From a virus: a stretch of 40,191 nt of DNA. Location of the stretch: the UHGV virus genome UHGV-1553673. One strand, given 5' to 3'. Both the position numbers and the translations under genes were made by a program. The notes under the pieces were generated by a model. That model did not search any database and was not told the origin of the DNA. It saw only the letters and a list, made by a program, of their open reading frames with translations. This document shows positions 5,835 through 40,191 of this stretch, piece by piece. How positions within the stretch are numbered: position 1 is the first letter of the stretch; the number at the start of each line of letters is the position of its first letter.

Positions 5835-6809
5835 CTATTTGATGTCTTGCGTGTAGCCTGTACCGCAACAGCATGAGCATTGCTCTATTGGCGCGTGAAT
5901 GGTATCCATAAGCGTCGTAAGGAAGTTATCAATCATTTCCTTTAGCTCCCATTCGTTATTGGCTTTGAACCCTTTAATCGCCGTATAACCTTTGTAATTT
6001 TCTTGGTCATGTGTCATTTGGAAAATTTCAATTTCTTTCACCGTGTCAGTCTTAAAGTGCAACTTTGCTCTTTGCTTCTTGGTTCTGGCAAAAATATCCT
6101 GATATGAATATGTGTGAGGCTTAAGGAGCGGTATTATTTTTTTAACGGTAAAGCAAAATGCGTAATCACTTGTTATTCTAGCCAGTTTGTTGTCGATGTT
6201 ATCTTTTACGTGCTGGCGTACAATGTCATACATTTCTTTTGATGAAATTTCACAAGGGCTGTTAGCCCGCAAAGGCTCAGGAATTATGATGCAGTCAACA
6301 AGAGAGTGTTTTACGTTTATGTTTTTTACAACGTACCTCTCCTCCCGGAACCCAACATGCCTAATTGCAGAGTAATTAAATTCTGGTGCGTCACGAAAAT
6401 TTTCAACCTCACATACTAATGTGAATTCAGCGTCAACTGGAGAGGTGTAATCAGGTGCAGTATCGTATTTGTATTCATAAAGAGAGCCTCTGATATCCTC
6501 GTCCACTGCGTCACGCTCATTGTAACTAAGTGTCAAAGGGTATTTTTTACTCTCAAGTTCAGCATCTTTAAGCTCGTAGCGAACATTAATTCTTTCACCA
6601 GAGATAATTCTCTCAACCTTTTCAGGGTAATGTTCAATTTCAAACCAGTTTTTGTGAAAGCTGGCTTTGGGTTTAACTCCGTCAAATAGGAGATCAGCAA
6701 TTTTAGATTGATGGTACTGGTAGTGATAACCGTCCTTTGCTGTGCAATCAGTGATAAAACATTTACCAGCGTCGGTTTTAATAATGCTTATTTGCAATGC
6801 GTTACTCAT
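5835..6809 (-). CDS. Hypothetical 324-aa protein in an AT-rich moron; candidate accessory/defence gene
   Basis: GC visibly lower than the flanks; GGAGG RBS before the ATG at 6809; hairpins flank both ends; cysteine-rich C-terminus CSCCCGTG; no family recognised. Confidence 0.6.
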   Translation of the reverse strand: MSNALQISIIKTDAGKCFITDCTAKDGYHYQYHQSKIADLLFDGVKPKASFHKNWFEIEHYPEKVERIISGERINVRYELKDAELESKKYPLTLSYNERDAVDEDIRGSLYEYKYDTAPDYTSPVDAEFTLVCEVENFRDAPEFNYSAIRHVGFREERYVVKNINVKHSLVDCIIIPEPLRANSPCEISSKEMYDIVRQHVKDNIDNKLARITSDYAFCFTVKKIIPLLKPHTYSYQDIFARTKKQRAKLHFKTDTVKEIEIFQMTHDQENYKGYTAIKGFKANNEWELKEMIDNFLTTLMDTIHAPIEQCSCCCGTGYTQDIK

Positions 6810-6983
6810 ATCTCCTCCAGGCAAAAAGAATGCCCTCACACTGGAGGGCAAAGAAGATTTCCAATAATCAGAACAAGTCGGCTCCTGTTTAGTTACGAGC
6901 GACATTGCTCCGTGTATTCACTCGTTGGAATGAATACACAGTGCAGTGTTTATTCTGTTGTTTATGCCAAAAATAAAGGCCGA

Positions 6984-7607
6984 CTATGCGGCCTCGGAAG
7001 GAAGTCCAATCATCTTATTCAAATCTTCTACCCGTAAAGCAGGAAGTGCTGTACTTGCTTTGTCTGCTTCTTTTGGTAGCAATTCTTTGCTTTCAGGCCA
7101 AACTTCAATAAGTCGCTTAACTGTTGTGACTGAGTTCAAAGCAGCCCATACATTTGATTCGATATCCTTTTTCTTGGCTTCAAGTTTTTGTTGCAATGCG
7201 CAGATTTCATCAAACCTTTTTGTTATTTCGTGTTCTGCGTCAAACATGCATTTATCTTTGGTCGGAGTAGGGAGCAATATATCTTCGCCGTTGCCGTCTT
7301 TCCCATATGAATGCCATCCAACCCTTCTGCCAGATACAGTCAGATAAATTGAAGTAGAACGAACATCGTATGAGTAAAATGAACATCCCATCTTTTCAAG
7401 TTCTTCACTTATAGCTACCAACTTGGATGATAACTGATCCACTTCCTCAGTTTTCTTTTTACCGCCAAACGCAATAACTCTGGCGTCAAGTGCAAGCTGG
7501 TTCTTTAACTTTGTTACTTCTTCAAGTTCAGTGAAAACCCCAGACTTAATTAAAGCGTTACGAGCGATTTCCTCTTTCATTCTCGTAGTTAAGCGGATTG
7601 ATGACAT
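6984..7607 (-). CDS. Hypothetical 207-aa protein (AT-rich region)
   Basis: RBS gagagg before the ATG at 7607; central coiled-coil-like stretch; family uncertain. Confidence 0.5.
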   Translation of the reverse strand: MSSIRLTTRMKEEIARNALIKSGVFTELEEVTKLKNQLALDARVIAFGGKKKTEEVDQLSSKLVAISEELEKMGCSFYSYDVRSTSIYLTVSGRRVGWHSYGKDGNGEDILLPTPTKDKCMFDAEHEITKRFDEICALQQKLEAKKKDIESNVWAALNSVTTVKRLIEVWPESKELLPKEADKASTALPALRVEDLNKMIGLPSEAA

Positions 7608-7672
7608 ATTAATTCCTCTCAAATAAGTGCTTTGCTGCCAAAACAATGAACCATCCGGAAATTCCAGATAGT

Positions 7673-7897
7673 TCATAATTCACTCTTCAATACTTCCAAC
7701 TTACTAATCGCCGATAGATATCCGCGCTGATAGGGCATCATCATTCCTTCGAGCTTGCCACTTCTTAACTCCTCCCTGAGCAATTGTATTGCTTGATCAA
7801 TAACCTCTGCCTTAGCGTCCTTTATGGCTTGCTTGCGGGGCTTTGCTTTCTGCTTTGGCAGATTTCTCAAGCATGATGGAATGTATGTCTGATTCAT
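7673..7897 (-). CDS. Hypothetical small protein (74 aa)
   Basis: Lies directly downstream of the N-like gene on the same strand. Confidence 0.4.
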   Translation of the reverse strand: MNQTYIPSCLRNLPKQKAKPRKQAIKDAKAEVIDQAIQLLREELRSGKLEGMMMPYQRGYLSAISKLEVLKSEL

Positions 7898-7900
7898 CAC

Positions 7901-8173
7901 TTACCTGGCTGTCAGTTGTTTTGATTTCCGGTAGCCTGCCGAGTAAATGGCTACGTTTGGCAGGCAAATACTTCCACTGCATTCTTCTGCCTTCTTGCAG
8001 CGAAGGCTTCCGAGTGATGCTGCTTTGTCTGCTCTGACGCAACCAGAGAGATTTAGCGCAATTTTTCGCGCCAGTGCTTCATTACTGCGTCGCTCGGCAA
8101 TAAGTTCTGCTCTGCGAGCTTTGTAGCGGCTTTTTGCCGTACCTTTGGATTCTTTCCAGACAATGGTTACCAT
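7901..8173 (-). CDS. N-type transcription antiterminator (P22 gene 24-like)
   Basis: Arg-rich motif near the N-terminus (KSRYKARRAELIAERR); C-terminus ...AGYRKSKQLTAR resembles P22 gp24; AAGGAG RBS; nutL immediately upstream. Confidence 0.75.
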   Translation of the reverse strand: MVTIVWKESKGTAKSRYKARRAELIAERRSNEALARKIALNLSGCVRADKAASLGSLRCKKAEECSGSICLPNVAIYSAGYRKSKQLTAR

Positions 8174-8283
8174 GATGGTCTCCTTTAAGTGGCTTTGGCG
8201 CATGACGCGTCGAGGTGCTTATCTTCTCGATCGCTGTCTTGCAGCTGCAATTCGCGCCATCCCCAAAACCACTCAAGTTCTGG

Positions 8284-8369: not shown

Positions 8370-8440
8370 TGATAGTCACATATTGTGATTTAATGGTCAA
8401 TCACAAAATGTGTAAAATAAAGGTGTGACACGTTATGTGT
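8370..8440 (-). promoter_or_regulatory. OL operators and putative pL
   Basis: Repeated ATCACA..TGTG operator-like motifs resembling those at OR; minus-strand TTGACC then a 17-nt spacer. Confidence 0.55.
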
Positions 8441-8650
8441 ATGATTTTTTTGTGTAAATAGTTTTACCCGCGATGGTTTTGCTTACTTAAGTCGGTGACA
8501 ACAGCAGGATGGGTGCTGAAAAGTTCGAAAAACGAGCGAATGGGGTGGTGGCGAGATGGCGGGATATGGGAGTTGTATTAAGAATTATAGTAATTTAATC
8601 AATAGTTTGGACCGGCGGGCAGGTGCTGTCCTGATAGTGATCGGCGGGCA

Positions 8651-8676
8651 ATAAAAAACCCGGCTCGGTGGCCGGA
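8651..8676 (-). terminator. Rho-independent terminator after the cI-linked operon
   Basis: Minus strand CCGGC-caccga-GCCGG followed by GTTTTTTAT. Confidence 0.6.
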
Positions 8677-8685
8677 TTTGCTAAA

Positions 8686-9237
8686 TTACTGACCTTTCTT
8701 AAGGTACAAGTTTATTAGGAAAAATATAGTTGGCATAGCAAGCGAGGCCAGGAGAACCCCGAGCATCCATACTTTTACATCTGCTATCTTGGTTTCCAAA
8801 GCGGAAAATTTAGCTTCAAAGTAGTCAACCGATGGTTTCTTAGATAATGAAGCATCAAAATCCAGGCTCTTCTGTAAAAGTACAGCGGTGTCTCTTTTGG
8901 CGTCAGTAGAATCAGAAGATATTTTCCGGGTATCCTCTTTAATTCCTGCCATGCTGCTCTTGATGTGCGCAACTTCAGCTTCAAGAACTGCTAATCGCTT
9001 ATCCATGTCGTCGCCTCCATCATCACTTGTTGTTTGAATGATCTCAGTATCATCCATCACAACCGATGTGACAATCCGTTTTTCTTTATCTGAAGCAGCA
9101 ACAGAACAAGCTTTCATCAAGAGCGTTGCTTGGCTTGATGCTACAGAAGAAAATTCCAGCCCTACTGTAGAGCCATTCTTATCAGAGTAAGCAATTACTA
9201 GCTTTCCCTCATCCAAAGATGATTGAGCTGCATTCAT
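8686..9237 (-). CDS. Hypothetical 183-aa protein with C-terminal transmembrane anchor; second gene of the cI-linked operon
   Basis: C-terminal hydrophobic helix VWMLGVLLASLAMPTIFFLINLYL; coiled-coil-like middle; GAGGA RBS; starts 6 nt after the upstream stop. Confidence 0.6.
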   Translation of the reverse strand: MNAAQSSLDEGKLVIAYSDKNGSTVGLEFSSVASSQATLLMKACSVAASDKEKRIVTSVVMDDTEIIQTTSDDGGDDMDKRLAVLEAEVAHIKSSMAGIKEDTRKISSDSTDAKRDTAVLLQKSLDFDASLSKKPSVDYFEAKFSALETKIADVKVWMLGVLLASLAMPTIFFLINLYLKKGQ

Positions 9238-9243
9238 CAGCTT

Positions 9244-9525
9244 TTATTCCTCGAACATGCTTTTCAAGGACTGATAGAAATCGAAGGCCTTCTGTTTACT
9301 TAAAGTCACGGACGCAACCTTAGTGCGCTGCATTCCTGCCACTGCGATTTCGCCATTCATATGGCCGATGACAGGGGTGCTATTGAGAAAAACGAAGTTA
9401 AAAACTTCGTAGCCATTGTTATCCGTTCCGATGGTTACAACCCCATCAGCATTAGTTTCAATATAATTTTTGGACTCCAGCACATCATTGATATGTGCTA
9501 AGGTAACTTCTTGTTTATCGCTCAC
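9244..9525 (-). CDS. Hypothetical 93-aa protein; first gene of the cI-linked operon
   Basis: GTG start with AGGAGA RBS 7 nt upstream; lower GC than the flanks. Confidence 0.55.
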   Translation of the reverse strand: MSDKQEVTLAHINDVLESKNYIETNADGVVTIGTDNNGYEVFNFVFLNSTPVIGHMNGEIAVAGMQRTKVASVTLSKQKAFDFYQSLKSMFEE

Positions 9526-9647
9526 TTATGTTCTCCTGAACCAACAAAATAGGTAAAAATCTTTTCAATTTCATTAGATTAATTTGCATAAAAAGAACAG
9601 GGAAAAGTTGGATTACCAGCTATGCGCCGACCAGAACACCTTGCCGA

Positions 9648-10295
9648 TCAGCCAAACGTCTCTTCAGGCCACTGCGCCTTAACTACCTTGCCTATGATGC
9701 GGCAGCTATGGTCGCAATCCAGGGTTCTATATGCCGGGTTTAAAGGTACCAGGTAACTAACCCCTGCATCCTTCTCATACTTCTTGAACGTTGCCTCTGA
9801 ATCACCATTTGCAGAAGCCACGCAGAAATCCCCAGACTCTACCGGCTCAGCCGGATCAACGAGTATCAGCATGCCTTCCGGAAAACTTGGACGAACCCCC
9901 TGAGGCGCCGTCATTGAATGCCCCTTCACCTCAAGCCAGAAAGCTTTTTCGCTGGCTTTTGTGGTCGTTGGGACCCATGCCTTTGCATCGCTGGCTGTGT
10001 AGCTTCCCACCTCCGAAAATGGCCCGGCCTGCACTGAAGAAAATAACGGGTATTCATATTGGCGAAATACGGCGTCTGAATCCTCGCCAAACATTATTTT
10101 TGCCGGAGATACGCCGAGTGCCGCCCCAAGAACCAGCGCGTCATCCGCGCTAACCTTTCTTGTTCCTAACTCGTAGTTCCCCAGGCGTGAAGGCGCAGCC
10201 CAGCCGCAAAGCTTGGCCAATTGAGCCTGGCTAAGTCCTTTAGCTTCTCTAAGGGACTTTATCCTTTCCCCGATAATTTCATGCATCGTTTTCAT
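9648..10295 (-). CDS. cI: CI/C2-type prophage repressor (HTH + S24 LexA-like peptidase domain)
   Basis: N-terminal XRE HTH ([11 protein letters not shown]); C-terminal GHSM...KK autocleavage motifs; divergent from cro. Confidence 0.9.
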
Positions 10296-10299
10296 CCCT

Positions 10300-10380
10300 T
10301 AAATGTAACACGCAACGTGATTGAACTCTGTACACGAATTGAGGTTGACTGTTAATCACAAATTGTGTGTAATGGGTGTG
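10300..10380. promoter_or_regulatory. OR operators with pR and pRM
   Basis: TTGACT (10345-10350), 17-nt spacer, TGTAAT (10368-10373); operator-like AATCACAAATTGTGTG overlaps. Confidence 0.6.
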
Positions 10381-10403
10381 TGATTAATGCTAGGGAGACC
10401 GCA

Positions 10404-40140: not shown

Positions 40141-40155
40141 TGGTGTCCCCTGCAG
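40141..40155. repeat. att core copy inside the tRNA 3' end (integrase-proximal)
   Basis: Exact 15-nt repeat of 442-456. Confidence 0.7.
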
Positions 40156-40191
40156 GAATCGAACCTGCAATTAGCCCTTAGGAGGGGCTCG
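40141..40191 (-). tRNA. argW: tRNA-Arg (anticodon CCU), 3' portion; truncated by the window edge
   Basis: Minus strand reads ...AGCCC-CTCCTAA-GGGCT (anticodon stem-loop with CCT), T-arm GCAGG-TTCGATT-CCTGC, acceptor and ACCA. Confidence 0.85.

Follow-up and report, generated by a model that had tools for sequence, protein, structure and literature searches.

The window analysed here is the whole 40,191-nucleotide (nt) stretch of the virus genome UHGV-1553673, and our subject is a pair of genes in it, g1 (gene 1) and g2 (gene 2), which lies on the minus strand between the cI repressor gene and the OL/pL region of a prophage. Coordinates are those of the window unless a comparison locus (L number) is named. 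We propose that g1 and g2 constitute a mobile accessory cassette that would be expressed from the repressor operon and would protect the lysogen from other phages at the inner membrane.

The g1-g2 gene pair and its setting

9244..9525, minus strand: g1, 93 amino acids (aa), GTG start; equivalent to ECs2991 and HK544c104
9532..9537, minus strand: Shine-Dalgarno sequence of g1, AGGAGA, 6 nt ahead of the GTG
8686..9237, minus strand: g2, 183 aa, in the same frame as g1, with its ATG 6 nt past the g1 stop
9248..9252, minus strand: Shine-Dalgarno sequence of g2, GAGGA, made by the last g1 codons GAG GAA TAA

Both open reading frames (ORFs), along with the GTG start, the AGGAGA ribosome-binding site and the 6-nt gap, were found exactly where a preliminary description of this DNA had put them. 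The GTG start of g1 is kept in the homologues from E. coli, Cronobacter and Enterobacter. Homologues from E. coli, Cronobacter, Enterobacter and metagenomes (L003, L007, L015 and L019) have likewise kept the g2 ribosome-binding site that g1 codons encode, and the two genes are translationally coupled. We found 46 homologues for g1 and 21 for g2, and the ratio of nonsynonymous to synonymous substitution rates (dN/dS) was 0.08 for g1 and 0.07–0.28 for those parts of g2 where dS was unsaturated. Because of the low dN/dS, the homologues and the detection of both proteins by mass spectrometry, g1 and g2 are more than chance ORFs; they are real genes under purifying selection. Database annotation is uneven, with only g2 annotated in VT1-Sakai and apparently in EDL933, and both genes in the Sakai chromosome, HK544 and RefSeq.

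Published proteomes and one microarray show both products in uninduced E. coli O157:H7. In strain 86-24, which carries the cassette, g2 was quantified (APEXi 858) in the high-molecular-weight Triton fraction, where proteins of the inner membrane collect, in a study that saw just 13–16% of prophage ORFs (PMC3210124); the protein is thus located in the membrane fraction. The g1 product ECs2991 (Q8X2Z1, 10 kDa) was detected by isobaric tags for relative and absolute quantitation (PMC3936929). Both products are made in lysogens without induction, and expression in the lysogen, on which the preliminary description had made its proposal depend, is borne out by these data.

The surroundings of the pair contain the following features.

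9648..10295, minus strand: cI repressor gene, first gene of the lysogenic operon, with Peptidase_S24 (3e-26) and HTH_3/HTH_31 matches; annotated cI in VT1-Sakai
9613..9674, minus strand: cI/cassette junction, the last 24 nt of cI and 38 nt past its stop; right-hand boundary of the cassette
9526..9647, minus strand: intergenic DNA between cI and g1, 122 nt, scanned for promoters and terminators
8646..8679, minus strand: intrinsic terminator of the lysogenic operon, a hairpin at 8656..8679 followed by a T run; left-hand boundary of the cassette
8372..8442, minus strand: OL operators and pL, transferred from the VT1-Sakai annotation (offset from L001 to the window, 5399)
7901..8203: N, beyond OL/pL

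The window is a Shiga toxin 1 (Stx1) prophage of E. coli O157:H7. Its region 8400..10400 is 99.8% identical to the Stx1 prophages VT1-Sakai and phiSTEC801-Stx1a of that serotype, and the VT1-Sakai annotation places cI, N, nutL, pL, the operators OR and OL and a 'terminator for the pRM transcript' in the flanks. The earlier map of the region is therefore correct. The pair had been placed between cI and OL/pL in the slot equivalent to that of rexAB, and both the spacing and the junction shared with lambda agree with this placement: the 62 nt of the junction are 98.4% identical to the sequence at the cI/rexA junction of lambda, 434, SfI and others. The scan of the 122 nt between cI and g1 gave no promoter-like or terminator-like site, which implies read-through from pRM/pRE, and g1 and g2 are presumably co-transcribed with cI. 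At the other end, the hairpin has a minimum free energy of -20.7 kcal/mol (z = -2.5) and is annotated as the pRM/Timm terminator in VT1-Sakai and HK544, with identity to HK544 beginning at about 8647. Hairpin and T run make a credible intrinsic terminator, as had been predicted after g2. The GC content of the cassette (0.38–0.44) is lower than that of cI (0.52–0.55) and N (about 0.49–0.51), but the claim that it falls below its flanks does not hold for the intergenic DNA immediately to the left (0.43).

Two tRNA calls were also recorded. ARAGORN placed a tRNA-Ala(cgc) inside the cI coding sequence (10015..10097, minus strand), which is probably a false positive because it has no Rfam support at the gathering threshold. 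A partial tRNA (Rfam, 31.3 bits) lies at 40144..40191 on the minus strand with its 5' side cut by the end of the window, and it may represent either a tRNA carried by the phage or an attachment site associated with a tRNA.

Architecture of g2 and a predicted start within it

The g1 protein is acidic, with an isoelectric point of 4.85, and soluble, and its AlphaFold2 model shows a beta-meander with a C-terminal helix at a predicted local distance difference test (pLDDT) score of 75. The g2 model (pLDDT 65) consists of a beta-beta-alpha N-domain (residues 10-48), a linker, a helix at residues 78-132, a break, and a second helix at residues 137-182. The parts of g2 map to the window as follows.

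9064..9237, minus strand: N-domain, residues 1-58, with strands 10-18 and 24-33 and helix 34-48 at pLDDT about 72-76; the variable part of the protein
9007..9063, minus strand: disordered Ser/Thr/Asp/Gly linker, residues 59-77, ending in an invariant DGGD(D/N)
8842..9006, minus strand: heptad coiled coil, residues 78-132, a single model helix of 55 residues
8704..8772, minus strand: C-terminal transmembrane tail anchor, residues 156-178, helical in the model and followed by KKGQ alone
9014..9018, minus strand: internal Shine-Dalgarno sequence GGAGG, encoded by Gly74-Gly75, 7 nt ahead of the ATG of M78 (9006..9004)
8686..9006, minus strand: predicted short product g2S, M78-Q183, 106 aa, comprising coiled coil and tail anchor; the conserved core of the wider family

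Residues 59-75 of the linker have a pLDDT below 50, and G74, G75 and D76 are invariant. In the coiled coil, an unbroken a/d heptad pattern runs from residue 82 to 131 (L82, L85, V89, I92, M96, I99, T103, I106 ... L131), with R81, L85, E86, V89, I92 and K93 invariant, and the break between the two helices falls at a conserved KKPS. Hydropathy reaches its maximum of 2.15 at residues 157-175 in a 19-residue window. Because g2 has no signal peptide and its strongly hydrophobic residues 156-178 are followed by KKGQ only, we predict it to be a tail-anchored inner-membrane protein with its bulk in the cytoplasm. Three variants of the tail anchor occur among g2 homologues, and all three expose 0-5 residues to the periplasm. 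The preliminary description had seen a coiled-coil-like middle and a single C-terminal transmembrane helix in g2, with which heptad pattern, hydropathy and model agree, and its pairing of a small soluble protein with a membrane-anchored partner fits the models and the composition of the two proteins.

Comparison of homologous loci revealed that g2 is modular and mosaic and that g1 travels with its N-domain, both of which had been missed before. Across eight loci, the identity of g1 correlates with that of the N-domain (Spearman rho 0.90) and neither with that of the C-terminal half of g2 (0.01) nor with that of the repressor (-0.22). Between the window and Enterobacter, g1 is 84% identical, the N-domain 85% and the C-terminal half 44%; the corresponding values for the metagenomic locus L015 are 35%, 23% and 95%. 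Recombination has its joint in the invariant segment DGGD(D/N)M-x-KRLAVLE. Exhaustive profile searching returned 584 relatives (E<=1e-3), and among the 150 best matches listed, many are proteins of 93-138 aa in which a variable N-terminus of short length and a poly-Gly stretch precede the same core of coiled coil and tail anchor. The similar beta-hairpins of g1 and the N-domain were considered as a sign of paralogy, which was rejected (BLASTP E 0.08 on an unrelated stretch; hhalign probability 0.2%).

A further feature that had escaped notice is an internal ribosome-binding site ahead of M78, which carries a signature at the level of codons. In 16 distinct homologous genes, codon 74 is GGA in 14 and GGG in two, and never GGC or GGT, while the third base of codon 75 is free. 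Since GGA makes up 24% of the other Gly codons of g2, the binomial probability of this usage at codon 74 is 2e-7 when phylogeny is ignored. Only four sites in the g1-g2 mRNA have a pentamer resembling a Shine-Dalgarno sequence, and three of these lie ahead of the start codons of g1, g2 and M78. In stand-alone relatives, GGAGG lies within the poly-Gly stretch, 7-10 nt ahead of a Met. Databases contain 93-99 aa 'proteins' that start at M78, and in the Cronobacter locus L009 the gene caller chose the M78 start. That g2 is truncated at this locus was considered and rejected, as the ORF is intact. The placement of GGAGG, the codon use and the gene calls at M78 therefore predict g2S as a second product, and the short isoform would be made alongside the full-length protein. 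We also scanned for an internal sigma-70 promoter that could serve the short form and rejected the one candidate, a 9/12 match at 9074..9046 on the minus strand (TTGTCA-17-GATACT) that does not exceed chance. The scanned region holds one promoter-like site compared with 3.5 in shuffled sequence, so the site is not evidence for a promoter. It lies about 30 nt upstream of the internal ribosome-binding site, a position that recalls lambda pLit within rexA.

Mobility, distribution and link to repressor genes

The cassette comprises 1,028 bp (from about 8647 to 9674) and is found with 99.5% identity in phage HK544, behind a lambda-type cI. Near-identical copies are present in 93 of 5,426 complete E. 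coli genomes, and the homologues are confined to Enterobacterales, where they occur in Escherichia, Klebsiella, Citrobacter, Enterobacter, Cronobacter, Pantoea, Serratia, Rahnella, Buttiauxella and Franconibacter. We examined repressor linkage in 27 loci from about ten genera, made up of 10 loci and 17 IMG/VR loci with an ORF directly upstream that was positive with the g1 hidden Markov model. Gene order was the same in 27/27, namely a repressor, a small protein of 84-106 aa and a g2-like protein of 169-184 aa, and all ten further upstream ORFs that were tested have a CI-type helix-turn-helix (HTH) domain, with or without S24. The repressors themselves are mutually unrelated (13–35% identity) and include S24-type cI and RacR-like HTH proteins. 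The g1-g2 pair is thus strictly linked to prophage repressor genes.

A distant form of the cassette, with an 87-94 aa protein and a 146-149 aa protein that has the same C-terminal core, was found in L014, L069, L072, L078, L079 and L082. In the P22-like Salmonella phage UPF_BP1 (L014 3560..4297) it directly follows mnt, where P22 has orf59a and sieA, and in other prophages it stands behind cI-type repressors of 242 and 251 aa. The cassette thus moves between two repressor operons that are expressed in the lysogen. Homology of the small partners of distant cassettes (UPF_BP1 gp65; the 88-aa protein of L061) to g1 was not established by hmmsearch (about 8 bits), and hhalign gave a suggestive match to g1 (45% probability, E = 2e-4, 77 collinear columns).

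The slot between cI and N is a defence hotspot. Phage mEpX1 (L020 976..2384) has a cI 100% identical to that of the window, and its cI-pL slot holds the two-gene PADLOC candidate PDC-M63, with A a DUF6932 protein (9.6e-41) and B matching at 7.6e-45. In lambda, the same slot is occupied by rexAB, and the BstA paper describes the cI-N region as a mosaic hotspot common to rexAB and bstA.

A stand-alone relative and several neighbours of the cassette were also noted. In Salmonella phage S107, orf25-orf26 (L013 3550..4294) encode a stand-alone core protein of 125 aa and, upstream, a 124-aa CxxC...CxxC protein (phrog_4293); the pair lies between Rha genes and tail genes with no adjoining repressor. 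In the window, a 356-aa ORF of the early-left (pL) operon (5835..6905, minus strand) matches Pfam Gad1, 'Gabija anti-defense 1', with E = 5.7e-67, and the prophage thus has anti-defence and candidate defence genes within a few kb of each other. The adjacent 230-aa ORF (6984..7676, minus strand) matches Nmad5, 'nucleotide modification associated domain 5', with E = 5.2e-72 and has no PADLOC match. Left of N (window about 6500..7900 compared with L001 1904..2485), VT1-Sakai and 86-24 have sieB on the opposite strand, whereas the window has no sieB ORF there and carries the Nmad5 and Gad1 genes instead. This difference looks like a second mosaic exchange beside the immunity region.

Proposed function and comparison with known systems

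Neither protein resembles a family of known function. Full-length matches were obtained to phrog_12039 for g1 (2.7e-64, residues 1-93 of 93) and to phrog_12602 for g2 (6.8e-124, residues 1-183 of 183), and residues 60-181 of g2 match phrog_3556 (1.2e-26), to which 58 of the 58 relatives tested likewise belong; none of the three has a functional annotation, so membership adds no mechanism. Profile searches of Pfam and NCBIfam gave no match for either protein, and sequence and profile searches of the PDB returned only generic coiled coils (Lpp, GCN4, adhesin stalks) and no proper match. Profile searches and BLASTP concur with the preliminary description, which had recognised neither protein and found them unlike RexA, RexB or SieB, and the family searches turned up no strong homology to a characterised non-defence protein, the finding that it had named as telling against its proposal. 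Two literature candidates were set aside as matches: the Tai system, from a paper using HK544, is unrelated, its gene lying upstream of the packaging module, and HepS is likewise unrelated to the cassette.

No enzymatic domain was found in g1 or g2, and the only plausible activity is at the membrane. We suggest that the cytoplasmic heptad coiled coil of g2 would drive oligomerisation of the single C-terminal transmembrane helices, and that the resulting oligomeric pores would depolarise or permeabilise the membrane by the effector principle of holins or of RexB. The effector core (residues 78-183) would probably also be made alone from the internal ribosome-binding site. The N-domain, present in the long form, and soluble g1 may together form a variable specificity or control unit, which would keep mixed g2 oligomers from acting until it is disturbed by an infecting phage, a logic shared with RexA/RexB and with the holin/antiholin pairs that arise from dual starts. 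As hardly any residue of g2 lies in the periplasm, sensing inside the cell with subsequent damage to the membrane is more likely than a block of DNA entry from outside, as in the SieA model.

The preliminary description had offered an exclusion or abortive-infection module as an inference. A defence function, which we infer from position, mobility and architecture, is well supported by context, considerably better than that description could have known, and we consider it fairly probable that the cassette acts against phages in some way. The more specific proposal, abortive infection by a membrane effector, is a serious candidate that we stop just short of calling probable. Broader and more doubtful is the idea of a widespread superfamily of repressor-linked abortive-infection cassettes in Enterobacterales temperate phages, in which a two-isoform, holin-like effector would be gated by an exchangeable sensor of g1 and N-domain, its core having recombined with many partner modules and moved between cI and mnt operons.

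Several points weigh against these proposals. PADLOC-DB v2.0.0 (5027 models, 2023) returned zero families for g1 or g2 at E<=10, comparison of the two structure models with solved structures gave no significant fold match, and a literature search found no study that tests g1 or g2 or links them to phage resistance. The models themselves are of moderate confidence only (pLDDT 65 and 75), a single transmembrane helix is a minimal pore former, and the slot next to the repressor also holds non-defence cargo in some phages. XhlA (PF10779) is matched by 7 of 58 g2 relatives (best E 4.4e-4; one score, for instance, is 17.9 bits where the cut-off is 34.7) and not by g2 itself at E<=1 in Pfam, and the relatives have weak matches to 'hemolysin' and 'holin/anti-holin' PHROGs; none of these similarities reaches a curated threshold, and the composition of coiled coils may account for them. 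A need for Gly-Gly in the protein could have produced the GGAGG incidentally, and the codon test is uncorrected for phylogeny. Finally, the co-variation of g1 with the N-domain could stem from adjacency on the DNA alone, the joint being a conserved linker, so physical contact between g1 and the N-domain is something we infer.

Among the other explanations, a role intrinsic to the prophage, which we regard as unlikely, would make the pair an addiction module, with g1 neutralising a membrane-toxic g2, or a modulator of the switch between lysogeny and induction or of lysis timing. A small acidic protein translationally coupled to a downstream membrane protein is indeed reminiscent of toxin-antitoxin pairs, the proposed dual start resembles holin/antiholin pairs, the link to repressor operons is strict, and the Rex functions of lambda reportedly influence the lysogenic-to-lytic transition. 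With the same cI, however, mEpX1 carries unrelated cargo and lacks the cassette, which consequently does not belong to the switch; neither a DNA-binding motif nor a significant fold match was found for g1, and lambdoid lysis genes belong to the late operon and are silent in lysogens. Addiction and abortive infection are, moreover, not mutually exclusive.

Superinfection exclusion at DNA entry, in which g2 would block genome delivery from the inner membrane without killing the cell, as do SieA, HK97 gp15 and T4 Imm, with g1 as a helper, seems improbable to us. It would account for the location of g2 in the membrane, for expression in the lysogen and for the related cassette that replaces orf59a-sieA after mnt in UPF_BP1. 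With 0-5 periplasmic residues, however, g2 would have access to ejection proteins from the cytoplasmic side alone, the Sie proteins that are known act singly and are polytopic or exposed to the periplasm, g1 and g2 show no similarity to SieA or SieB, and the variable, sensor-like cytoplasmic unit with its soluble partner suits intracellular sensing better. A conversion of the host's physiology by the prophage that has nothing to do with phages (in envelope stress, survival in stationary phase, or fitness in the gut or rumen), which the tail-anchored coiled-coil host proteins YqjD, ElaB and YgaM might call to mind, is very improbable given the lack of a DUF883 or other Pfam match, the spread of the cassette over unrelated prophages of many genera, always in exclusion-gene slots, and a rapid modular diversification typical of conflict systems.

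The earliest abortive-infection system to be described, rexAB, came from the cI-N slot of lambdoid phages, which still yields new ones, such as BstA. The g1-g2 cassette, as a candidate minimal immune system of sensor plus membrane effector, would if confirmed add a family absent from PADLOC-DB v2.0.0. It would also account for a cargo that is conserved in Stx prophages and may influence which phages, including therapeutic ones and other Stx phages, are able to infect enterohaemorrhagic E. coli, and would provide an example of a linker selected at both the protein and the mRNA level to create a second isoform. The cassette is unusually tractable, with about 280 codons, no enzymatic domain and known expression at the protein level, and it is present both in the Stx1 prophage that the major O157:H7 lineage carries and in the laboratory phage HK544, which lysogenises K-12.

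The closest comparison is with lambda RexAB. The layout is the same in both, with cI, about 120 nt, a first gene, a short gap, a second gene, a terminator and OL/pL in succession (gaps of 122 and 6 nt here, 112 and 15 nt in lambda). Both share the cI-proximal junction sequence, are expressed in the lysogen and combine a soluble with a membrane component, and rexB has its own route of expression (pLit), which parallels the internal start proposed for g2. The proteins differ: RexA is a DNA-binding protein of 279 aa, whereas g1 is a 93-aa acidic beta-meander (BLASTP E = 3.4 over 13 residues), and RexB crosses the membrane with four helices, whereas g2 combines a long coiled coil with a single helix at its C-terminus (BLASTP E>=14). 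Because homology is lacking for both proteins, the cassette is not a member of RexAB but an analogue, in its place and probably in its manner.

With holin/antiholin dual-start pairs such as lambda S105/S107, g2 shares its character as a small membrane protein and, as proposed here, the dependence on oligomerisation and the two isoforms that differ by an N-terminal extension. That extension is only two residues in S105/S107, whereas in g2 it is a folded domain plus linker of 77 residues. The XhlA-type 'hemolysin' of Bacillus prophage lysis cassettes likewise places a C-terminal transmembrane helix after a coiled coil, a resemblance of architecture only. Unlike holins and XhlA, g2 is encoded in the lysogenic operon and not in a late lysis cassette.

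P22 SieA/SieB and other exclusion proteins are also lysogen-expressed membrane proteins in repressor-linked slots, and a relative of the cassette occupies the sieA position. They differ from the cassette in having one gene rather than two, g2 is almost without periplasmic exposure, and there is no homology by Pfam, NCBIfam or PADLOC (best E for VT1-Sakai SieB, 3.2 over 7 residues). BstA of Salmonella BTP1 and PDC-M63 of mEpX1 share the cI-N hotspot, the presumed expression from the repressor promoter and the exchange of whole cassettes, but not the proteins, which are unrelated; BstA consists of one large protein at phage replication sites, and PDC-M63 includes a DUF6932 protein. Type II toxin-antitoxin systems are similar only in gene order and coupling, as g1 and g2 have no HTH, ribbon-helix-helix, AbrB or toxin domain. 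Assigned to uncharacterised PHROGs and to no curated defence family, the cassette stands among these systems as a prophage-encoded candidate for a sensor-plus-membrane-effector module in a known hotspot.

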